In this document: positions 3 through 30,701 of the stretch, one piece after another | Position numbering within the stretch: the first letter of the stretch is position 1 | Layout of the letters: each line of letters begins with the position of its first letter | NCBI GenBank assembly: GCA_009780625.1 | Contig: WQZR01000001.1 | Coordinates: 1-40,268, forward strand | Source of the DNA: Bacillota bacterium | Lineage (GTDB): Bacteria; Bacillota; Clostridia; Christensenellales; UBA1242 | Direction: 5' to 3' | DNA: 40,268 nt | Position numbers and translations under genes: made by a program | Notes under the pieces: model-generated | Told to the model about the DNA's origin: nothing | Databases searched by the model: none | Seen by the model: the letters and a program-made list of their open reading frames with translations, nothing else

Positions 3-488
3 GATTTAAAGAGACTAAGCGAAATCAAAACAGAACTTGGCGAGGAAATCAAAAAAGTTAAAGCAGCCCTGATTGAGTTATGCGACTGGCAAGAAGGAAA
101 GTGTTTGTTTCAAAGACAACGTGGCTCAGCGTATACTTGTTGCACAACAACATTTGTCTGCAAACAACTTGATGAAGATAAAGGCTGCACACTAGACGAT
201 GAAGAAAGACCACTGCTTTGCGATTTATTTCTATGCGTTCCTGCAATTGAAGCATTGATGGAAAAAGTGAAAGCATTCAACAGTGGCGACGACAGTGTTA
301 GGGAAGAGTTGGACTTTCTAAAAGACTATATAAAGATGTGCATTTTGCTAAACAAAGAACAACTTCCAATATATAAAGAATATTTCGATGCAACAGTGAT
401 AAGAGAATGCAAAAACCCATGTGCAAAAAAATGCACAAAGCCATATCTAAAATCTGCTGAAGTTGTTGGCACTGGAGAATTTTTCTAG
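3..488 (+). CDS. Cys-rich hypothetical protein, 5'-truncated by the window edge (possibly a YkgJ/CxxCxxCC-type metal-chelating family)
   Basis: The frame of the 105-488 ORF stays open back to nt 3. Many Cys residues (CDWQEGKC, YTCC, C..ERPLLCDLFLC). Family guess is from motif memory only. Confidence 0.5.
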   Translation, partial: DLKRLSEIKTELGEEIKKVKAALIELCDWQEGKCLFQRQRGSAYTCCTTTFVCKQLDEDKGCTLDDEERPLLCDLFLCVPAIEALMEKVKAFNSGDDSVREELDFLKDYIKMCILLNKEQLPIYKEYFDATVIRECKNPCAKKCTKPYLKSAEVVGTGEFF

Positions 489-1249
489 TATAAAACTTCT
501 TCGAGGCAAAGACCCTTAGCATCAGCCGTTCCAATTCCATTGGTGCGGCTTTCTTTTTTTAGTGCGTTTTCTATGTCTTCTTTGGTAAGTTTGCCAAGTC
601 CAACATCAACAAGCGCTTGTGTCATAATTCTCACTTGGTTATGAAGAAAACTTCTTCCAGTGAAATATATTTTGATTATTGTAGGGGTCGCATCACCATG
701 CGACCCTGTTTCGAATCTTATATCTGTAAGTTTCCTCATATGGTCCGTCACTGCTGCTCCAGTCTTGCAAAAACTTTTAAAGTTTTTATAGCCAATCAAT
801 GAGGCAGAGGCTTCTTTCATTTTTTCTATGTCCAGTGGGCGTTTGATGTGCATTGCTGTGTCGCGTTCGAATGGGCACAAAACATCGCCGTTCCAAATTG
901 TGTAGGAATATGTTTTTGCCTTTGCTGAATATCTTGCCGAAAACTCTTTGTCTGCTTCTTCAACAGATAGAACTCTAATATCAGGTGGAAGCATTTGGTT
1001 TAAAGAAGTCTTTGCGTGTCCACAGTTTATTTTGTTTGAAGTAAAGAAATTCACGGTTTGCTTTTTTGCATGCACTCCAGAATCTGTTCTGCCAGAAGCA
1101 ACAACCGTCACCTTTTGTTGGCACACAGTTTCCAAAACAGTTTCCAAAACCCCTTGCACCGTTTTCTGTTTTGGTTGAATTTGAAAACCAGCATACCCCG
1201 TGCCGTCGAAACTTATAACCATCTTATGATTGAATTCAGATTTTTTCAT
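485..1249 (-). CDS. truA: tRNA pseudouridine(38-40) synthase TruA
   Basis: GRTDSGVHA catalytic motif, FLHNQVR motif, about 250 aa. Carries an in-frame REP insert (GSHGDATPT). Confidence 0.93.
   Translation of the reverse strand: MKKSEFNHKMVISFDGTGYAGFQIQPKQKTVQGVLETVLETVCQQKVTVVASGRTDSGVHAKKQTVNFFTSNKINCGHAKTSLNQMLPPDIRVLSVEEADKEFSARYSAKAKTYSYTIWNGDVLCPFERDTAMHIKRPLDIEKMKEASASLIGYKNFKSFCKTGAAVTDHMRKLTDIRFETGSHGDATPTIIKIYFTGRSFLHNQVRIMTQALVDVGLGKLTKEDIENALKKESRTNGIGTADAKGLCLEEVLY
681..706 (+). repeat. REP copy 1 (GTAGGGGTCGCATCACCATGCGACCC), inside truA, antisense to the gene
   Basis: GTAG plus a perfect 9-bp stem GGGTCGCAT/ATGCGACCC with loop CACC. The 30-mer 681-710 is identical to 9611-9640. 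Confidence 0.9.
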
Positions 1250-3059: not shown

Positions 3060-3461
3060 ATGAAAATAGTAAACAAACAAAAATTCTTCTGGGGAACTGG
3101 AAGAAGAAAGAAAGCAGTTGCAAGAGTTAGAATCGTTGGCGGCGGAGCAGGAAAGATTGAAATCAACCAAAAAGATATTAAAGAATATTTCCTAAACGAC
3201 ATCTTAAAGCAAATCGTAAACCAACCACTTGTGCTTACTGGAGAAAAAGTTGACGTTTTTGTAAACGTTAAAGGTGGCGGACTTACAGGACAAGCAGGCG
3301 CAATCAGACACGGGCTATCAAGAGCGCTTATCAAGTTCAACGAGTCGCTTAAACCAGAGCTTAAGAAAGCAGGATATCTAACAAGAGACCCAAGAGCGAA
3401 AGAGCGTAAAAAATATGGTCTTAAAGCAGCAAGAAAAGCTCCACAATTCTCAAAACGTTAA
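3060..3461 (+). CDS. rpsI: 30S ribosomal protein S9
   Basis: [19 protein letters not shown]...[35 protein letters not shown], coupled to rplM. Confidence 0.96.
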
Positions 3462-3467
3462 TACACA

Positions 3468-3494
3468 AAAAAATGCCTTTCGGCATTTTTTTTG
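3468..3494 (+). terminator. Rho-independent terminator after rpsI
   Basis: AAATGCC-TTTC-GGCATTT plus T8. Confidence 0.8.
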
Positions 3495-3501
3495 TTATAC
3501 T
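3493..3501 (+). promoter_or_regulatory. Extended -10 TGtTATACT, 6 nt before the ATG at 3508 (leaderless candidate)
   Basis: Read directly. No SD. Confidence 0.45.
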
Positions 3502-3507
3502 ATATAT

Positions 3508-3828
3508 ATGAATGCAAAACAGAAGTTGCAAGTTCTAACAAGAATTATTGGAATACTCAGCGGAGTGGTGTATTTTGTTGCCGGCGTACTGCTGATTATT
3601 TTTGGAATATACTTCAGCCTAGACTATCTATGGACAATCGGAATAATTGTCACAATCTTTGGAATTATTCACATAATCTTGTTTTCGCTTTCAATTCCAG
3701 ATTCGAACAGATTTGCAATCAAAGCCATGGGCTTTGGTTTCCTCACCGGAAACATTCTTATTCTCATTCTTTCACTAATCATTTTCTTCCTTCAAGACGA
3801 AGAGAATAAGAAAGATATAAAAGGATAA
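3508..3828 (+). CDS. Small integral membrane protein, paralog A (about 106 aa, 3 predicted TM)
   Basis: The long ORF 3415-3828 overlaps rpsI. The internal ATG at 3508 follows the rpsI terminator and a TGtTATACT box. Shares G.(I/V)HI..F...FA....(L/F)(T/V)G(N/S)...SI....(K/Q)D.E with 3833-4150 and 4845-5159. Confidence 0.7.
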   Translation: MNAKQKLQVLTRIIGILSGVVYFVAGVLLIIFGIYFSLDYLWTIGIIVTIFGIIHIILFSLSIPDSNRFAIKAMGFGFLTGNILILILSLIIFFLQDEENKKDIKG

Positions 3829-3832
3829 TTCT

Positions 3833-4150
3833 ATGAAAAAAGATTTAAGGTTTCTAACCAACTTGTTCTATTTAATCAACGGGGGCATATGTGTGCTTTC
3901 AGGACTTGTTTCAATAATTGTAGGTATTGTTTACTATATTGGAGACGATTTGCTTTGGTCTACAATTTTAATTCCTTCAGGAAGTATTATTGCGGTGGTT
4001 GGTTTTGTGCATATAATTTTTTTCCTCGCTCTAATGACAACCAAAACAAAAACATTTGCAATCGCATCTACGATAATCAGCTATTTGACAGGCAATATTT
4101 TTATATTTGTTCTTTCAATCGCAACCCTCATTGCAAAAGATACTGAATAA
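3833..4150 (+). CDS. Small integral membrane protein, paralog B
   Basis: 105 aa and hydrophobic. Aligns by eye with paralogs A and C. Confidence 0.75.
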   Translation: MKKDLRFLTNLFYLINGGICVLSGLVSIIVGIVYYIGDDLLWSTILIPSGSIIAVVGFVHIIFFLALMTTKTKTFAIASTIISYLTGNIFIFVLSIATLIAKDTE

Positions 4151-4155
4151 AAAAT

Positions 4156-4181
4156 AAACGCCGCTGGCGTTTTTATTTTTT
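4156..4181. terminator. Bidirectional terminator between membrane paralog B and the RAYT gene
   Basis: ACGCC-GCT-GGCGT flanked by A- and T-runs. Confidence 0.65.
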
Positions 4182-4760
4182 ATAAACAAAATAGAAATCA
4201 GTCAGCCAGTTGACAGGGTTATTTTGAATATACTGCCTTGTTTCATTCAACTCTTTTTTATTTCTGATTATTCTTTCATAATAGTTTCGCTGGAAGAATT
4301 TGTATTTTGCATCTATTGTGCAATTTGATTTGAAGTGATGAATAATTTGGCCTAGTGAAATCGTAGGGGTCGCACCTGAGAGCGACCCGTTGTGTAAAAT
4401 TTGAATAATCATGTGAATATGATTTGGCATGATTACAAAGGAATCAATCTTATATCTTTTGCTAGTTTCATTTATACGGTTTATTCTACCTAGTATTATT
4501 TTTCCTAGTGATGACAATTTGATTTGCGGGTCGCTCTCAGGTGCGACCCCTACATTTCCTCGAATTCCGTATTTTAACTCGTGTTCGGTAGGCATCAAAA
4601 CCTCGCTCAAAATGCAATGCCCGTCTTGAACACAAATAACCACATGATAAAACCGCGGCTCTTTATAGTCGAAACTTTTCAATCTGACATCTTTTCTTAC
4701 GGGCAATCCGCTTGCTTGTCCTCTAAGTTCTCTTTCAGTCATAAATCTATTATAGTACAT
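4173..4760 (-). CDS. REP-associated tyrosine transposase (RAYT / TnpA_REP, IS200-like Y1 HUH enzyme)
   Basis: VRLKSFDYKEPRFYHVVICV N-terminus, HUH motif MPNHIHMII, C-terminal FQRNYYERIIRN...YIQNNPVNW. Contains two in-frame REP copies. Confidence 0.85.
   Translation of the reverse strand: MYYNRFMTERELRGQASGLPVRKDVRLKSFDYKEPRFYHVVICVQDGHCILSEVLMPTEHELKYGIRGNVGVAPESDPQIKLSSLGKIILGRINRINETSKRYKIDSFVIMPNHIHMIIQILHNGSLSGATPTISLGQIIHHFKSNCTIDAKYKFFQRNYYERIIRNKKELNETRQYIQNNPVNWLTDFYFVYKK
4363..4388 (+). repeat. REP copy 2 (GTAGGGGTCGCACCTGAGAGCGACCC), inside the RAYT gene
   Basis: Read directly. Encodes GSLSGATPT in the RAYT frame. Confidence 0.9.
4528..4553 (-). repeat. REP copy 3, exact reverse complement of copy 2, inside the RAYT gene
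   Basis: GGGTCGCTCTCAGGTGCGACCCCTAC on the + strand. Encodes VGVAPESDP in the RAYT frame. Confidence 0.9.
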
Positions 4761-4793
4761 TTGTTCTAAATATCAAAGCAGATGTAAAACGCT

Positions 4794-4820
4794 TTGAATT
4801 TTTCGGGGGGGGGGTAGAAT
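4794..4820 (+). promoter_or_regulatory. Promoter TTGAAT / 15-nt spacer containing G10 / TAGAAT upstream of membrane paralog C
   Basis: G run at 4805-4814 counted from the sequence. The spacer is 2 nt shorter than the 17-nt optimum. Confidence 0.5.
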
Positions 4821-4844
4821 TAAGTGATTGGAAGGAGATTAGAC

Positions 4845-5159
4845 ATGAAAGAAAAATTACATGATTTAACTGTACTGTTTTGGTTGCTTTGCGGAATATT
4901 ATACATACTAACAGCGGTCGTATTGATAATAATAAATTTTAATTCTGCGACTGACGCTTTTGGTGCTTGGGGTTTTAGTATTTTAGTACTTGGTGCTGTG
5001 CACATATTGTTTTATCTTTTTAGGACTCTAGACTGGAACAAGTTTGCAAAAACATCTATAATTGTAAGTTTCTTTGTTGGCAGTGCCTTAATCTTTAGCT
5101 TTTCAATAGCGCTGTATCTAGCAAAAGATTCAGAAGAACTGAATAAAAAAAATACTTAG
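4845..5159 (+). CDS. Small integral membrane protein, paralog C
   Basis: SD GGAAGGAG at 4830-4837, 7 nt before the ATG at 4845 (the track starts at GTG 4824). Paralogous to 3508-3828 and 3833-4150. Confidence 0.7.
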   Translation: MKEKLHDLTVLFWLLCGILYILTAVVLIIINFNSATDAFGAWGFSILVLGAVHILFYLFRTLDWNKFAKTSIIVSFFVGSALIFSFSIALYLAKDSEELNKKNT

Positions 5160-9343: not shown

Positions 9344-9913
9344 ATGAAAAACTTTGAAGGAACAGAATTCTTTTTAGGCACACCAACAAGGCTTGATTAT
9401 TTAAGAGAACTAAAACAGAGGCAGGAGATGGAAAGAGAAGAAACATTCGAACAAAGAGTTCTTAGAGAAAGAGAGCGTGAGGCAGAGAAGGTTGAACTGC
9501 AAACAAAAATGATTAGAGAAAAAATTCAAACACAACTGCTTCTTGAAGACTTTTCAAACACCAGTTTTTTGGAGTTTAAAAAAGAAATTGTACTCCGTGC
9601 ACCTGAAGGTGTAGGGGTCGCATCACCATGCGACCCTGTTGAGGTTGTCGACATTCGAGAGCGTATTGTTTCAAATGTAGGGGACGCGCCACAGAGCGTC
9701 CCAACAGAAAGAACCTTCAACGAAGAAGATTTCTCTAAACTTCTAAAAAAAAAGAAGAACAGCAAAAAAGGTGTTTTTGGCGAAATCGTTTTTCTTATAA
9801 CCCTCTTCTTTATGGCAACGCTTTTGTTGGTTATGATTTCTGGAACTTTTGACATAGGAATCATAGGAACATTTCTAAGAGAAGAGACAAATTTTCATGA
9901 AATATTTAGTTAA
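9344..9913 (+). CDS. Hypothetical protein with a charged N-terminal region and a C-terminal TM anchor
   Basis: Overlaps the downstream M50 protease gene by 17 nt. Contains two in-frame REP copies (GVGVASPCDP, NVGDAPQSVP). Confidence 0.6.
   Translation: MKNFEGTEFFLGTPTRLDYLRELKQRQEMEREETFEQRVLREREREAEKVELQTKMIREKIQTQLLLEDFSNTSFLEFKKEIVLRAPEGVGVASPCDPVEVVDIRERIVSNVGDAPQSVPTERTFNEEDFSKLLKKKKNSKKGVFGEIVFLITLFFMATLLLVMISGTFDIGIIGTFLREETNFHEIFS
9611..9636 (+). repeat. REP copy 4 (identical to copy 1)
   Basis: In frame in ORF 9344-9913 (GVGVASPCDP). Confidence 0.9.
9677..9702 (+). repeat. REP copy 5, stem variant GTAGGGGACGCGCCACAGAGCGTCCC
   Basis: T->A in the 5' arm is matched by A->T in the 3' arm, so pairing is kept. 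In frame (NVGDAPQSVP). Confidence 0.85.
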
Positions 9914-11037: not shown

Positions 11038-11067
11038 AAAAAGGGTCGCACCACGGTGCGACTTTTA
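11038..11067 (+). terminator. REP-related hairpin acting as a terminator after 10635-11036
   Basis: GTCGCACC..GGTGCGAC stem followed by TTTT. Confidence 0.55.
11043..11062 (+). repeat. Partial REP-like hairpin GGGTCGCACCACGGTGCGAC (no GTAG head), intergenic
   Basis: Shares GGGTCGCACC with the REP family. Flanked by an A-tract and TTTT. Confidence 0.6.
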
Positions 11068-22742: not shown

Positions 22743-22767
22743 GTAGGGGTCGACCACTGGGCGACCC
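22743..22767 (+). repeat. REP copy 7 (25-nt subtype GTAGGGGTCGACCACTGGGCGACCC), intergenic rluB-ruvA
   Basis: Starts 1 nt after the rluB TAA. Same subtype as copy 12. Confidence 0.85.
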
Positions 22768-22789: not shown

Positions 22790-23395
22790 ATGATTTCATT
22801 TATTGAAGGAAAAATTGTAGAGAAAACAGATAAGAGCATTATCGTTAAATGCGGACATATGGGCATGGAAATTTTGGCGTCTTCGTTTTCGATTGCAAAT
22901 GCAAAGCACACAGGCGAAGAAGACTTTTTTTATACATACCTTCATGTTAGGGAAGACGCGTTGGTGCTTTTAGGTTTCAAAACAAAAGAAGAACGCGGAA
23001 TATTTTTAAATCTGATTGAAGTTTCGGGAATTGGTCCAAAAGCAGCAATGACAATTCTAAGCGCAATGCCACTTGAGAACTTAGCTTCAGCAATTGTAAG
23101 GGGAGATGTGAATGCCCTTGCTTCAGCAAAAGGCGTTGGAAAGAAAACAGCAGAACGCATTGTGCTTGAACTTAAAGAAAACATTAGAAAGAATTACAAA
23201 TCAGATGTAGGGGTCGCGCCTCAGAGCGACCCGCAATCAGACATAAGTCTTAGCCAAATTGAGCAAGACGCACAAATCGGGCTAATGAGTCTAGGGCTTA
23301 CCAAAAAAGAATCTGCAGAAGTGATTAAAAAAACGAGAGAGCATTCACCAAAAACCAGCGAAGAAATAATTAAACTCTCATTAAGGATGTTATAG
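22790..23395 (+). CDS. ruvA: Holliday junction branch migration complex subunit RuvA
   Basis: MISFIEGKI N-terminus, GIGPKAAMTILS and AKGVGKKTAERIVLELK HhH motifs. REP insert in the domain II-III linker. Confidence 0.92.
   Translation: MISFIEGKIVEKTDKSIIVKCGHMGMEILASSFSIANAKHTGEEDFFYTYLHVREDALVLLGFKTKEERGIFLNLIEVSGIGPKAAMTILSAMPLENLASAIVRGDVNALASAKGVGKKTAERIVLELKENIRKNYKSDVGVAPQSDPQSDISLSQIEQDAQIGLMSLGLTKKESAEVIKKTREHSPKTSEEIIKLSLRML
23207..23232 (+). repeat. REP copy 8 (GTAGGGGTCGCGCCTCAGAGCGACCC), inside ruvA
   Basis: Encodes VGVAPQSDP. Differs by 1 nt from copy 11 over GTAG...GACCCGCAA. Confidence 0.9.
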
Positions 23396-24706: not shown

Positions 24707-25780
24707 ATGAAAACAGACATCAAAGACTATTGGTATGATTTGCCACCAGAACTTATTGCACAAACTCCACTAAAGAAGCGCGACGAAAGTAAGCTTCTCT
24801 ATTTTGATGGCAAAAATGTAAACCACGGAAACAAGTTTTTAGATTTGCCAAAACTATTAAAAAAAGGCGACATTCTTGTTGTAAACGAAACAAAGGTTTT
24901 GCCGATTAGACTTATTGGAAAAAAATCAACTGGTGCAGAGTGCGAAGTTTTTCTCTTAAAAGATATAGGGGTCGCACCTCAGGGCGACCCGAACAAAAAA
25001 ACATACAACGCTCTAATCAGACCAGCAAAAAGACTTAAAGTAGGAGACGCAGTTGACTGCGGCAAAATGAAAGTTAGAATATCAGAGAAACACGAAGATG
25101 GTCAAGCAACAGTTGAACTAAACTACACTGGCATCTTCGAAGAAGTTCTAGATGAGGTGGGAGAAGTCCCTCTTCCTAGTTACATAAAAAACGTAGGGGT
25201 TGCACCTCAGGGCGACCCGCTCTGCGAACGCTATAACACAATCTATGCATGTCACGCAGGCAGCAGCGCTGCACCAACTGCAGGGCTTCATTTCACACCT
25301 GAGGTGATTAAACAAGTTGAAGCGATGGGCGTGGAAATTGTTCGCATAATTCTTCATGTGGGTCTGGGAACATTTAGACCAATCAAGGTGGATAACATCC
25401 TAAATCACGACATGCACTCAGAAGAATATTTCATTTCACCTGAAGCGGCAGAAAAGATTAACAGAGCGAAAAGAGAGAATAGAAGAGTTGTTGGTGTTGG
25501 AACAACCAGCATGCGAGCTCTTGAACACAACAGTGCACAATATGGCGAAATCAAGGCAGGAAGTTTTCTTGCAAACAGTTTTATTCATAACGACTACGAT
25601 TTTAAAATAATCGATGCAATGATTACAAACTTCCACCTGCCAAATTCAACACTAGTTTTGTTGGTTTCGGCATTCGTTGGTTTTGACAACTATAAAGAAA
25701 TATATAAACAAGCCGTGGAACAGCAATATAGATTTTTTTCTTTCGGAGACTCTAGTTTCCTAATCAGACCAAGGAAATAA
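24707..25780 (+). CDS. queA: S-adenosylmethionine:tRNA ribosyltransferase-isomerase QueA
   Basis: YDLPPELIAQTP, GSSAAPTAGLHFT, GVGTTSMRALE, ITNFHLPNSTL. Two in-frame REP inserts. Confidence 0.95.
   Translation: MKTDIKDYWYDLPPELIAQTPLKKRDESKLLYFDGKNVNHGNKFLDLPKLLKKGDILVVNETKVLPIRLIGKKSTGAECEVFLLKDIGVAPQGDPNKKTYNALIRPAKRLKVGDAVDCGKMKVRISEKHEDGQATVELNYTGIFEEVLDEVGEVPLPSYIKNVGVAPQGDPLCERYNTIYACHAGSSAAPTAGLHFTPEVIKQVEAMGVEIVRIILHVGLGTFRPIKVDNILNHDMHSEEYFISPEAAEKINRAKRENRRVVGVGTTSMRALEHNSAQYGEIKAGSFLANSFIHNDYDFKIIDAMITNFHLPNSTLVLLVSAFVGFDNYKEIYKQAVEQQYRFFSFGDSSFLIRPRK
24965..24990 (+). repeat. REP copy 9 (ATAGGGGTCGCACCTCAGGGCGACCC), inside queA
   Basis: Encodes IGVAPQGDP. The head is ATAG instead of GTAG. 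Confidence 0.85.
25193..25218 (+). repeat. REP copy 10 (GTAGGGGTTGCACCTCAGGGCGACCC), inside queA
   Basis: Encodes VGVAPQGDP. A C->T change in the 5' arm leaves a T:G wobble. Confidence 0.85.
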
Positions 25781-25897: not shown

Positions 25898-26464
25898 ATG
25901 AAAATAATAAAACGAAAAATGTTTATGGGGGCAAACACGGCAGACGGGTTTGTTTCTTTTTATGACCAAATCGTTGACTGGTATGACATCAAAAAAATGT
26001 ATATATTGAAGGGCGGAAGCGGAGTTGGCAAAAGCACATTTATAAAAAAATTCACAGAAAGAGTTATTGCGAATGTAGGGGTCGCGCCTAAGAGCGACCC
26101 GCAAACTTTAACAATCGATTTCATCATGTGCAGTTTCGACCCCAACTCCTACGACGGCGTGATTATTCACGAACTGGGCTTGGCAATAATTGATGGAACG
26201 CTTCCACACATCGTCGACCCAAAATATCCAGGACTTGTTGAAGAAATAATTGATTTATCAAAATATATAAACCCAAATGCTGTAGGGGTCGACCGTTGGG
26301 CGACCCGTGACCTAAAACAACAAAAAAGCGAACTATTTAAGTCCGCATATAAAACTCTAAACGATGCAATGGCTGTGCATATGCAACTTGAAGTTGTCTA
26401 TAAAGATGCTGTTGATTTCAAAAAAGTAGACAAACTAATTAGTCACATAGTCTCCAAGATATGA
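25898..26464 (+). CDS. P-loop ATPase, apparently only the N-terminal half of a longer family
   Basis: GANTADGFVSFYD...LKGGSGVGKSTF Walker A...DGTLPHIVDP. Its 3' end overlaps the convergent gene by 30 nt. Two in-frame REP inserts. Start uncertain. Confidence 0.55.
   Translation: MKIIKRKMFMGANTADGFVSFYDQIVDWYDIKKMYILKGGSGVGKSTFIKKFTERVIANVGVAPKSDPQTLTIDFIMCSFDPNSYDGVIIHELGLAIIDGTLPHIVDPKYPGLVEEIIDLSKYINPNAVGVDRWATRDLKQQKSELFKSAYKTLNDAMAVHMQLEVVYKDAVDFKKVDKLISHIVSKI
26075..26100 (+). repeat. REP copy 11 (GTAGGGGTCGCGCCTAAGAGCGACCC), inside the P-loop ATPase gene
   Basis: Encodes VGVAPKSDP. Confidence 0.9.
26282..26306 (+). repeat. REP copy 12 (25-nt subtype GTAGGGGTCGACCGTTGGGCGACCC), inside the P-loop ATPase gene
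   Basis: Encodes VGVDRWATR. The 25-nt length shifts the frame of the 3' arm relative to 26-nt copies. Confidence 0.85.
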
Positions 26465-27170: not shown

Positions 27171-27247
27171 TGGTAGGACTAAATGGACTCGAACCATCGA
27201 CCCCCACCTTATCAGGGTGGTGCTCTAACCAACTGAGCTATAGTCCT
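27171..27247 (-). tRNA. tRNA-Ile (anticodon GAU), CCA encoded
   Basis: Manual cloverleaf: acceptor AGGACTA/TAGTCCT, anticodon stem CCACC/GGTGG with loop CTGATAA, T-loop TTCGAGT. Confidence 0.92.
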
Positions 27248-30444: not shown

Positions 30445-30520
30445 GGCGACCTCGATCGGACTCGAACCGACGACCTCCTGCGTGACAGGCAGGCGTTCTA
30501 ACCAACTGAACTACGAGGCC
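30444..30520 (-). tRNA. tRNA-Asp (anticodon GUC), CCA encoded
   Basis: Reverse complement GGCCTCGTAGTTCAGTTGGTTAGAACGCCTGCCTGTCACGCAGGAGGTCGTCGGTTCGAGTCCGATCGAGGTCGCCA. Loop CTGTCAC. Confidence 0.92.
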
Positions 30521-30524
30521 ATAT

Positions 30525-30601
30525 TGGTGGGCCTTCAGGGACTTGAACCCCGGACAATCCGGTTATGAGCCGGGTGCTCTAACCAACTGAGCTAAAGGCC
30601 C
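30525..30601 (-). tRNA. tRNA with CAU anticodon (Met by anticodon; sequence resembles the lysidine-modified tRNA-Ile2 type)
   Basis: Reverse complement GGGCCTTTAGCTCAGTTGGTTAGAGCACCCGGCTCATAACCGG.... Loop CTCATAA. Not initiator-like (no GGG/CCC anticodon stem). Confidence 0.85.
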
Positions 30602-30615
30602 CCACGCATAGCGTG

Positions 30616-30701
30616 TGGTGGGTAGTGGCGGATTCGAACCACCGAAGGCGAAAGCCGGGGGAGTTACAGTCCCCTGCATTTGACCGCTCTGCAAACTACC
30701 C
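30616..30701 (-). tRNA. tRNA-Tyr (anticodon GUA), class II with a long variable arm, CCA encoded
   Basis: Acceptor GGGTAGT/ACTACCC, anticodon stem GGGGA/TCCCC with loop CTGTAAC, variable arm GGC-TTTC-GCC. Confidence 0.9.

Follow-up and report, generated by a model that had tools for sequence, protein, structure and literature searches.

The locus described here raises the question of why a RAYT transposase gene carries two inverted copies of a GTAG REP within its own reading frame, one on either side of its HUH motif, and what keeps them there. In the window (the whole stretch of DNA that was analysed, 40,268 nt), a repeat search found a perfect 27-nt inverted repeat, with arms at 4363-4389 and 4527-4553 that are 100% complementary and separated by 137 nt. 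This is the pair that the initial annotation had given as two 26-nt copies, 4363-4388 and 4528-4553, with 139 nt between them. Each arm consists of GTAG, GGGTCGC, an 8-nt loop and GCGACCC, and when up to three mismatches are allowed the 26-mer occurs six times in the window, compared with 0.00 expected from 100 dinucleotide-preserving shuffles. Both arms are coding and in frame in the minus-strand ORF 4173-4760, and the 137-nt spacer between them is coding as well. The arms are inverted with their GTAG ends outward, which is REPIN-like geometry, and the HIH codons at 4413-4421 lie between them. The initial reading of a RAYT with its own GTAG REPs in frame around the HUH segment, in a REPIN-like arrangement, holds. 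A 12-nt direct repeat, CAATTTGATTTG (4321-4332 and 4515-4526), is read in two different frames and was taken as chance. The features of the locus are as follows.

4173..4760, minus strand: RAYT / TnpA-REP gene; the longest ORF is 195 aa and the NCBI annotation, MCL2770692.1, is 189 aa.
4749..4776, minus strand: promoter-like TTGATA-16 nt-TATAAT, 11 of 12 matches, 6 nt upstream of the ATG at 4742.
4527..4553, minus strand: REP arm at protein site 1, GTAG on the coding strand; its translation, VGVAPESDP (aa 70-78), occupies the loop ahead of the first long helix (alphaB of 4ER8).
4390..4526, minus strand: arm-enclosed segment of 137 nt; aa 79-124, with helix alphaB, strand beta2, and strand beta3 with the HUH motif.
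4413..4421, minus strand: HUH motif codons, His114-Ile115-His116, read from the sequence and invariant in alignments A1 and A2.
4363..4389, plus strand: REP arm at protein site 2, GTAG on the plus strand, with the gene reading in reverse; encodes GSLSGATPT (aa 125-133).
4230..4232, minus strand: putative catalytic tyrosine Y177 in YIQNNP, invariant in A1 and A2; matches the YIxNNP motif of subclass 2.4 (PMC6006769, Table 1).
4156..4172, no strand assigned: bidirectional terminator-like hairpin, not a REP, directly past the RAYT stop codon.

The identity of the protein is supported by both sequence and structure. It matches Pfam Y1_Tnp (E 8.6e-7, 29.6 bits, cutoff 23), and its match to NCBIfam REP_Tyr_transpos (E 3.9e-14) covers aa 96-183 only and, at 52.8 bits, is under the cutoff of 80. 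The best Foldseek match is the TnpA-REP structure 4er8_A (E 9.7e-7, TM 0.52/0.60). Y177 aligns with the YIYINP segment of 4ER8 and lies inside helix 168-185 of the AF2 model. Subclass 2.4 is described in the text of Quentin et al. 2018 (PMC6006769) by the motifs NH[IFV]H, WQ and YIxNNP and by a median length of 194 aa. The window protein has NHIH, YIQNNP, a length of 189 or 195 aa and in-frame REPs, with FQ in place of the WQ that is present in many of its homologs. Placed by these motifs, it probably belongs to TnpA-REP subclass 2.4 (RAYT Group 4). Calothrix and Histophilus, a Pasteurellaceae genus, are in our homolog set, and the literature names Calothrix, Haemophilus and Aggregatibacter for RAYT Group 4.

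The real start is likely the ATG at 4742, which gives the 189-aa protein. Because the promoter-like site lies only 6 nt upstream of this ATG, the RAYT transcript is suggested to be leaderless; the paralog P0003 is preceded by a similar TATAAT-5 nt-ATG arrangement. No REP flanks the RAYT gene in its 22-nt and 63-85-nt intergenic spacers, which hold only the terminator and the promoter-like site.

Next, we located the two repeat-encoded peptides in the protein. Confidence in the AF2 model (mean pLDDT 84.9) falls only at aa 61-80 and 121-130, and both peptides lie in these low-confidence loops. The arm at 4363-4389 occupies the variable loop that links the HUH strand (beta3) to alphaC, the same loop that holds the REP-insertion domain of subclass 2.4 in the text of Quentin et al. 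2018 (PMC6006769). The proposal made at the outset that the enzyme tolerates two loop insertions, to be checked by structure prediction and against homologs without them, is consistent with these positions and with relatives of 162-166 aa that lack both inserts (P0007/P0008, P0110-P0112).

The two arms are not the only REPs in the window. It contains 11 GTAG REP hairpins in 40 kb, compared with 0 expected by chance, and 10 of the 11 are intragenic and in frame. Beyond the RAYT gene they are as follows.

681..706, plus strand: TruA-like gene 485-1249 (minus strand), in frame, encodes GSHGDATPT.
9611..9636, plus strand: ORF 9344-9913 (plus strand), in frame, encodes VGVASPCDP.
9677..9702, plus strand: variant stem GGGACGC/GCGTCCC in the same ORF, in frame, encodes VGDAPQSVP.
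22743..22767, plus strand: second-family REP of 25 nt with a 6-bp stem and a 9-nt loop; the only intergenic copy, between a pseudouridine synthase gene and ruvA.
23207..23232, plus strand: inter-domain linker of RuvA, in frame, encodes VGVAPQSDP.
24965..24990, plus strand: first copy in QueA, in frame, encodes IGVAPQGDP; B. subtilis QueA (1yy3) has a gap in this region.
25193..25218, plus strand: second copy in QueA, in frame, encodes VGVAPQGDP; its loop is identical to that of the first.
26075..26100, plus strand: PRK06851-like P-loop ORF 25898-26464, in frame, encodes VGVAPKSDP.
26282..26306, plus strand: second-family REP in the same P-loop ORF, in frame, encodes VGVDRWATR.

The intergenic copy is similar to arm 2 of paralog P0003. 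A hairpin at 11045-11062 has a T run after it and no GTAG and was taken as a terminator, and Rfam at gathering thresholds returned only four tRNAs in the window. The window holds no further inverted REP doublet, and the doublet plus spacer is present in it only once. Of this genome, the analysis covered 40 kb plus about 33 kb. A metagenome scan for GTAGGGGTCGC-N8-GCGACCC returned at least 116 stretches spread over many unrelated genomes (GC 26-70%), and this MAG's other contigs were absent among the matches listed. Also among the matches listed is locus L102, with the loop ATCACTAT, which is related in appearance.

The same MAG encodes three RAYT paralogs, P0001, P0002 and P0003, whose accessions come from the same two MAG assemblies; the initial description of RAYTs as single-copy does not apply to this genome. 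The text of PMC6006769 documents genomes with multiple tnpA-REP genes, each of which has a REP family of its own. P0001 and P0002 have a common stem and different loops (ACCTGAGA and ACCTAAGG), and each loop is mirrored perfectly in both arms. Simple sampling from a common REP pool would not predict such mirrored loops, and the pattern, which counts against the explanation favoured below, points to within-gene homogenisation or paralog-specific recognition. Another protein, P0004 (56% identity), has VGVDRWATR as its site-1 peptide.

We then compared homologs. Of 83 homologous genes, 33 have the split layout, with a GTAG-hairpin occupying site 1 and, 115-181 nt away, a hairpin-CTAC occupying site 2, and these 33 form one clade in an NJ tree. 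The interruption of the RAYT gene is not a one-off; it is a layout inherited clade-wide, and it is also found in the cultured isolates Geosporobacter subterraneus DSM 17957 and Gemmiger formicilis. The 33 genes average about 44% amino acid identity and have 21 distinct stems. In the majority, site 1 follows a conserved Cys by 12-13 aa and precedes a conserved Gly by 8 aa, and the site-2 loop ranges from 7 to 23 aa across homologs. A sister clade carries both hairpins adjacent or fused as one GTAG...CTAC "double-foot" palindrome downstream of the HUH motif, where they enclose no segment.

The two arms of a gene resemble each other far more than they resemble those of other genes, with 92% identity within genes and 57% between them. 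The arm pairs are perfect, loops included, in 12 of the 33 genes, and 176 of 213 loop positions are consistent with an inverted model. In another 13 genes the stems of the two arms differ, and each arm is compensated within itself. Because such arms each keep their own compensated stem, this argues that the conserved unit is the single hairpin and not the arm-arm pairing. The hairpin finder demanded perfect stems, so the 100% pairing is partly circular; what is free of this circularity is how often hairpins were detected at fixed sites. Likewise, the 41 double-sided changes in 35 arms, a number reached in none of 500 shuffles, were counted in arms preselected for perfect stems.

Among close relatives, the arms are also more conserved as DNA than the remainder of the gene, at 100% compared with 83% for L009/L012, 100% compared with 72% for L006/L064, 92% compared with 76% for the window gene and L001, and 96% compared with 69% for L019/L056. 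In these relatives, the DNA constraint on the arms is stronger than that on neighbouring codons. GTAG-hairpin density per kb is 2.88 inside RAYT genes, 0.86 within 300 nt of them and 0.096 farther off, so that the RAYT ORF has about 30 times the REP density of the distant flanks. Flanking REPs match the internal arms, among them two subtypes in Geosporobacter (L026) and exact copies in L064. Short homologs were inspected as candidate products of REP-mediated deletion and rejected: P0028/L202 proved to be full-length but frameshifted, the remainder resemble gene calls truncated at the N-terminus, and none showed signs of rearrangement. In P0028/L202 a third REP overlaps the 3' end of the gene.

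The explanation that we favour, with moderate confidence, is that this is a subclass 2.4 RAYT with two resident cognate REPs in permissive loops, which are kept by constraint at the DNA level and not by arm-arm pairing. Two cognate GTAG REP hairpins, inverted relative to each other with their GTAG ends outward, would sit in frame in two permissive surface loops: loop 1 just before alphaB, upstream of the HUH strand, and the hypervariable loop 2 between the HUH strand and alphaC. The nine-residue peptides would be passengers, and what is conserved would be the DNA hairpins. The split layout comes from the ancestor of a large branch, sampled mostly from Clostridia-type MAGs, and was not gained by the window gene. 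The hairpin sequence would change lineage by lineage with the protein and with the dispersed REPs of the host, while each arm would remain a perfect hairpin and the two arms near-identical. Our results show the identity, position and loop location of the copies, their conservation across the clade, the matching of the arms and the constraint at the DNA level. From these we infer that the REPs inside the gene belong to the ordinary REP population, bound by the encoded RAYT on single-stranded DNA. The arms may be kept intact by selection for RAYT recognition or by copying from sister REPs, mediated by the RAYT or by recombination, and their maintenance would not operate through a need for arm-arm pairing.

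Pairing between the arms is central to a different explanation, in which a long-range stem of about 27-34 bp, formed in the mRNA or in single-stranded or supercoiled DNA, encloses the HUH segment and acts as a cis regulator by blocking translation, serving as an RNase III target or stalling replication, with autoregulation of a potentially harmful nuclease as the result. IS200 tnpA is held down by mRNA stem-loops, and the pairing predicted here is very stable. In an RNA fold of 4340-4580 the arms pair in both the MFE and the centroid structures (-83.6 kcal/mol, z = -9.3), and they pair in the DNA fold (-48 kcal/mol, z = -8.9). The 12 genes with complete arm complementarity and the loop variants of P0001 and P0002 also fit such a stem. 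However, the arm-specific compensating changes in 13 genes keep the local hairpins and leave the long stem mismatched, and the sister-clade hairpins have no segment to enclose. Furthermore, the two QueA REPs share their loop although they are direct repeats and unable to pair, and identical loops would equally be required if one protein recognised the arms on opposite strands. Given these observations, we regard a regulatory long-range stem as possible but unlikely.

Somewhat more doubtful is the idea that the hairpins are not insertions at all but a vertically inherited part of the gene, such that the transposase and a REPIN around its catalytic exon form one unit and the enzyme, with its own gene as target, brings about conversion, excision or inversion. 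If this were true, the action of the enzyme would keep the arms identical and couple REP sequence to protein specificity, with each paralog carrying the exact loop variant that it recognises. It would also seed the dispersed REP family and possibly limit the enzyme's own expression.

A related proposal makes the pair with its coding spacer a RAYT substrate that is excised, inverted or copied and that either seeds the REP family as a master copy or switches off the catalytic core. The geometry is that of a REPIN, REP density is highest in the RAYT's own ORF, hairpins and protein diverge together, and TnpA-REP cleaves and rejoins REPs in vitro (PMC6006769; PMC8266576). An inverted segment would give the junction GAGAGCGACCCGCAAATCAAATTG, or GAGAGCGACCCG/CAAATCAAATTG with its partner. 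However, no inverted, deleted or permuted form was seen, with all 33 genes in the same order and with an intact frame, and independent assemblies of the window gene are identical. Nor does the window contain a second doublet with its spacer, and we consider this proposal improbable.

Still less probable, and disfavoured, is that the arms are neutral hitch-hikers, two independent recent REP insertions in tolerant loops with neither maintenance nor role. In-frame REPs do occur in many genes of this genome (TruA, RuvA, twice in QueA, and others), and intragenic GTAG REPs are known (PMC3733652). Against this stand the recurrence of site 1 at the same codon position in most of the 33 genes despite their divergence in protein and stem, the slower evolution of the arms than of neighbouring coding DNA, and a REP density in the gene about 30 times background. 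Finally, nothing beyond the MAG origin of the contig speaks for an assembly or annotation artefact, and we reject a chimeric inverted repeat or a pseudogene, because the same protein is found in two NCBI MAG assemblies and in ENA and Logan assemblies, the ORF is intact with all catalytic motifs, and the layout recurs in 32 other genes, cultured isolates included.

The locus bears on several wider points. For the questions of what RAYTs do for their hosts and how REPs are copied, a RAYT branch whose own gene always holds a matched substrate pair is a compact natural test system, with enzyme and substrate on one short fragment and three paralogs in a single genome as built-in specificity controls. 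Hairpin DNA that is conserved within disordered protein loops is maintained by something besides protein function. The window also contributes a lineage of Bacillota whose REPs reside almost wholly inside genes, which bears on how compact genomes accommodate repeats. It bears on annotation as well, since many proteins contain short V-G...P and G...P-T peptides that are translated REPs.

Several known systems share parts of this arrangement. Like the IS200/IS605 elements, the window gene encodes a Y1 HUH enzyme of the family that recognises imperfect hairpins on single-stranded DNA. In IS200/IS605, however, the hairpins are subterminal, outside tnpA and in direct orientation on one strand, and the element, which is multicopy, transposes as a unit, whereas no subterminal hairpins flank the window gene. 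The E. coli REPtron (PDB 4ER8; Messing et al. 2012, PMC3479197) has the same fold; it recognises GTAG plus a hairpin, with alphaB and alphaC as the hairpin-binding face. It differs in belonging to subclass 2.2, in having REPs that flank the gene and in its bulged stems, and its identity with the window protein is only about 15%. For a group 3 TnpA-REP, loop bases matter in the recognition of perfect-stem REPs (PMC8266576).

GTAG hairpins translated as short peptides in the loops or linkers of housekeeping proteins, pseudouridine synthases and DNA repair proteins among them, were described by Di Nocera et al. 2013 (PMC3733652). The in-frame REPs in TruA, RuvA and QueA are of the same kind as these and as the Rickettsia palindromic elements treated there. 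In that study, however, RAYT genes are reported as flanked by REPs or TIRs and uninterrupted, whereas the RAYT gene in the window is interrupted and 10 of the window's 11 REPs are intragenic. REPINs, which are REP doublets forming a hairpin (Bertels & Rainey 2011, PMC3116915, PMC3337134), likewise consist of two inverted REPs that are kept matched to each other, are RAYT-associated and are able to form one long hairpin. They are extragenic, with short noncoding spacers and many copies, whereas the pair here is intragenic, its 137-nt spacer is essential coding sequence, and the window has no other such doublet.

The closest system is subclass 2.4 itself. The initial annotation knew of no described precedent, but in-frame REPs within tnpA-REP genes are a hallmark of subclass 2.4 (RAYT Group 4) in the text of Quentin et al. 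2018 (PMC6006769). The features shared with that description are NH[IFV]H and YIxNNP, a length of about 190 aa, internal GTAG REPs that keep the frame, the variable loop as an insertion site and, in the sister clade, the "double-foot" REPs. In contrast to that description, the REPs here bracket the catalytic strand, with a fixed site before alphaB and one downstream of the HUH motif. The text of that paper places an 8-aa "alphaB loop" insertion "at the end of alphaB", whereas site 1 here precedes alphaB; the two might nevertheless be the same. Arm matching, co-divergence with the protein and DNA-level conservation are not reported in the text of PMC6006769. REPs inside this subclass were thus already known, and what is new here is that the split layout is inherited over a whole RAYT branch.

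A repeat search of the window returned a perfect 27-nt inverted repeat with a spacing of 137 nt, both arms of which are in frame within a minus-strand ORF. Each arm is its own hairpin with GTAG in front (GTAG-GGGTCGC-ACCTGAGA-GCGACCC), and the 26-mer, at three or fewer mismatches, has six copies in the window and none in 100 shuffles. The initial annotation was right about the coordinates, peptides, and geometry of an inverted REP pair inside this gene.

4173-4760, minus strand: RAYT ORF
4527-4553, within the ORF: arm 1, encoding VGVAPESDP (aa 70 to 78, in-frame translation)
4413-4421, within the ORF: HIH codons, between the two arms (sequence reading)
4363-4389, within the ORF: arm 2, encoding GSLSGATPT (aa 125 to 133, in-frame translation)

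The feature is real: this gene is a RAYT that houses two resident cognate REPs, each in a permissive loop, and no REP flanks the gene in the window. The ORF matches Pfam Y1_Tnp with a score above cutoff and the NCBIfam model "REP-associated tyrosine transposase" under that model's cutoff (E 3.9e-14). An AlphaFold2 model built from 81 homologs had a mean pLDDT of 84.9, and a structure search returned 4ER8, E. coli TnpA-REP with bound REP hairpin, as the closest PDB structure. The HUH motif and the tyrosine of YIQNNP are invariant across homologs. MCL2770692.1 and MCL2484108.1, both from MAGs and labeled "transposase [Bacillota bacterium]," have the same sequence as this protein.

The annotated start, the ATG at 4742, gives 189 aa; a promoter-like TTGATA-16-TATAAT would place the transcription start at about this ATG, and a terminator-like hairpin lies 3' of the stop codon. 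Common to the RAYT paralogs is a promoter-like TAGAACAAATGT[A/G]CTATAAT with an ATG 5 to 6 nt later (window 4742-4776, minus strand; about 9780-9806 in the paralog locus L003). The arrangement supports the 189-aa start and suggests that the mRNAs are leaderless. The spacer that separates the RAYT gene from the divergent ORF 4824/4845-5159 contains a ten-G run (4805-4814) followed by TAG, which may be a slipped-strand tract. Tandemly arrayed paralogous genes for small membrane proteins (3415-3828, 3833-4150, and 4824-5159) surround the RAYT gene, which may have been inserted into this array; ORF 3833-4150 shares 37% identity with ORF 4845-5159 (E 2e-13).

Using 80 homologous loci from species-representative genomes plus loci of the closest relatives, we scanned gene by gene for GTAG-tagged perfect hairpins.

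Hairpin layouts among the 83 genes counted
Split, about 33: GTAG-hairpin about 115 to 180 nt into the gene and hairpin-CTAC 115 to 181 nt further, bracketing PNHIH
Adjacent, 8: both hairpins side by side after HUH
Palindromic, about 15: one long GTAG...CTAC palindrome after HUH
Single hairpin, 11
No hairpin, 14: peptide remnants in several

In a neighbor-joining tree of conserved columns only, the split-type genes formed one large clade and the adjacent and palindromic types the other. Clostridia-type MAGs make up most of the split clade, and two cultured species, Geosporobacter subterraneus and Gemmiger formicilis, also belong to it. Among 1.84 billion representative proteins scanned, 2,857 were relatives at E ≤ 1e-10, and about 37% of the closest 149 carried both peptide signatures. 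GTAG-hairpin density was 2.88/kb within RAYT genes, 0.86/kb up to 300 nt away, and 0.096/kb farther out. At one locus (L202, 1778-2303), a frameshift directly after arm 1 splits a related RAYT (P0028), and a third REP, with the same sequence as arm 1, overlaps the 3' end of that gene, where it is translated as ...VGVDDHVDPQI-stop.

The position of site 1 is fixed in most split-type genes, starting 12 to 13 residues past a conserved Cys and ending 8 before a conserved Gly, and site 2 floats inside the variable loop. The hairpins vary widely in sequence, with stems of 21 distinct kinds. When arm 1 was compared with reverse-complemented arm 2 of the same gene, identity averaged 92% (12 perfect pairs), against 57% for arms of different genes, and of 213 loop positions 176 fit an inverted-copy model and 60 a direct-copy model. 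Pairwise comparison of related genes showed the arms to be more conserved than the remaining coding sequence (100% versus 83%, 100% versus 72%, 92% versus 76%, and 96% versus 69%). One option raised initially was that the enzyme tolerates two loop insertions; consistent with this, the arm peptides fall where the model has its only stretches of low confidence (aa 61 to 80 and 121 to 130), and relatives of 162 to 166 aa, which answer to the insert-free homologs also proposed then for comparison, carry neither insert. Therefore, conservation targets the DNA or RNA of the arms rather than the encoded peptide.

Wherever contigs extend far enough, internal arms match REPs adjoining the gene. Exact copies lie next to the gene at one locus (L064), and in Geosporobacter the arms are two different REP subtypes, both repeated as a doublet directly upstream. 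Most likely, the internal hairpins would be upheld as members of the REP population that the encoded enzyme recognizes. Pairing between the arms may also have a role, given that 4340-4580 is predicted to fold with the arms as one long stem both as RNA (-83.6 kcal/mol, z = -9.3) and as DNA (-48 kcal/mol, z = -8.9). However, the data do not require it. The two arms disagree at stem positions in 13 of the 33 genes, with a compensating change within each arm (for example, GGGGCG...CGCCCC versus GGGACG...CGTCCC), which keeps the local hairpins and leaves the long stem mismatched, and the sister clade hairpins enclose nothing. Moreover, group 3 TnpA-REP reads loop bases (Corneloup et al. 2021, PMC8266576), so recognition by one protein would likewise demand identical loops on opposite strands. 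We conclude from these comparisons that the single REP hairpin is what is conserved. The internal pair may also have regulatory or self-mobilizing roles.

The accessions of the window protein (P0001), P0002 (70% identical), and P0003 (58%) belong to the same two assemblies, implying three RAYTs in one genome, each with its own internal REP pair (window 4173-4760; L001 10001-10525; L003 9804-10322). P0002 has a perfect 28-nt pair with loop ACCTAAGG where P0001 has ACCTGAGA; the stem is common, and the two differing loop positions are mirrored in both arms. The arms of P0003 have diverged, and arm 2 resembles a second REP family in the window. That two same-cell paralogs each mirror their own loop variant is the strongest hint that a process more specific than common-pool sampling is at work, with within-gene homogenization, paralog-specific recognition, and selection for pairing as candidates.

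Eleven GTAG hairpins occur in the window, one intergenic and 10 in frame inside ORFs.

4363-4389 and 4527-4553: RAYT, two
681-706, 9611-9702, 23207-23232, 24965-25218, and 26075-26306: TruA, one; RuvA, one (interdomain linker); QueA, two; PRK06851-like ORF, two; hypothetical ORF, two

At a coding density of about 90%, this placement is not in itself nonrandom. What is notable is the uniform frame (V/I-G...P with GTAG on the coding strand, G...P-T if reversed) and the tolerance within housekeeping proteins. Aligned to solved orthologs, the QueA and RuvA peptides fall in gaps or linkers, and the TruA peptide mostly takes the place of a turn of like length, with just two gap positions. The second REP family (22743-22767 and 26282-26306; 25 nt, stem GGGTCG/CGACCC, 9-nt loop) encodes VGVDRWATR, identical to the site 1 peptide of the homolog P0004. 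The PRK06851-like P-loop ORF (25898-26464, 188 aa) covers only the first half of the approximately 360-aa family models and may be truncated; it carries two REPs, and the next gene is on the opposite strand. The window also has four minus-strand tRNA genes (27174-27247 and 30447-30701), and three of these form a cluster.

GTAG is on the plus strand in 10 of 11 REPs, the sole minus copy being the RAYT arm 4527-4553. The TruA gene is minus yet its REP is plus, so the bias tracks the replicon, not the gene. Because cumulative GC skew climbs throughout the window, plus is probably the leading strand. The hairpins would then lie on the template of the lagging strand, a placement known from IS200/IS605 insertions.

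The initial annotation was aware of no described precedent, but Quentin et al. 2018 (PMC6006769), who split Y1 transposases into subclasses, supply one for subclass 2.4, which corresponds to RAYT Group 4 as defined by Bertels et al. 2017 (PMC5581495). As described in the text of Quentin et al., this subclass has motifs NH[IFV]H, WQ, and YIxNNP, a median length of 194 aa, and a variable domain that separates strand beta3 (HUH) from helix alphaC and is remote from catalytic and DNA-binding sites; "double-foot" REPs (GTAG...CTAC) are also reported there. The window protein belongs to it because it has NHIH, FQ (WQ in many relatives), YIQNNP, and about 190 aa. REPs within RAYT genes are thus already published as a general phenomenon; the HUH-bracketing split pair, fixed site, clade-wide inheritance, and DNA-level constraint appear unreported in the text of that paper. 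Di Nocera et al. 2013 (PMC3733652) gave an earlier account of in-frame GTAG REPs in other genes, whereas RAYT genes were reported there only with flanking REPs or TIRs.
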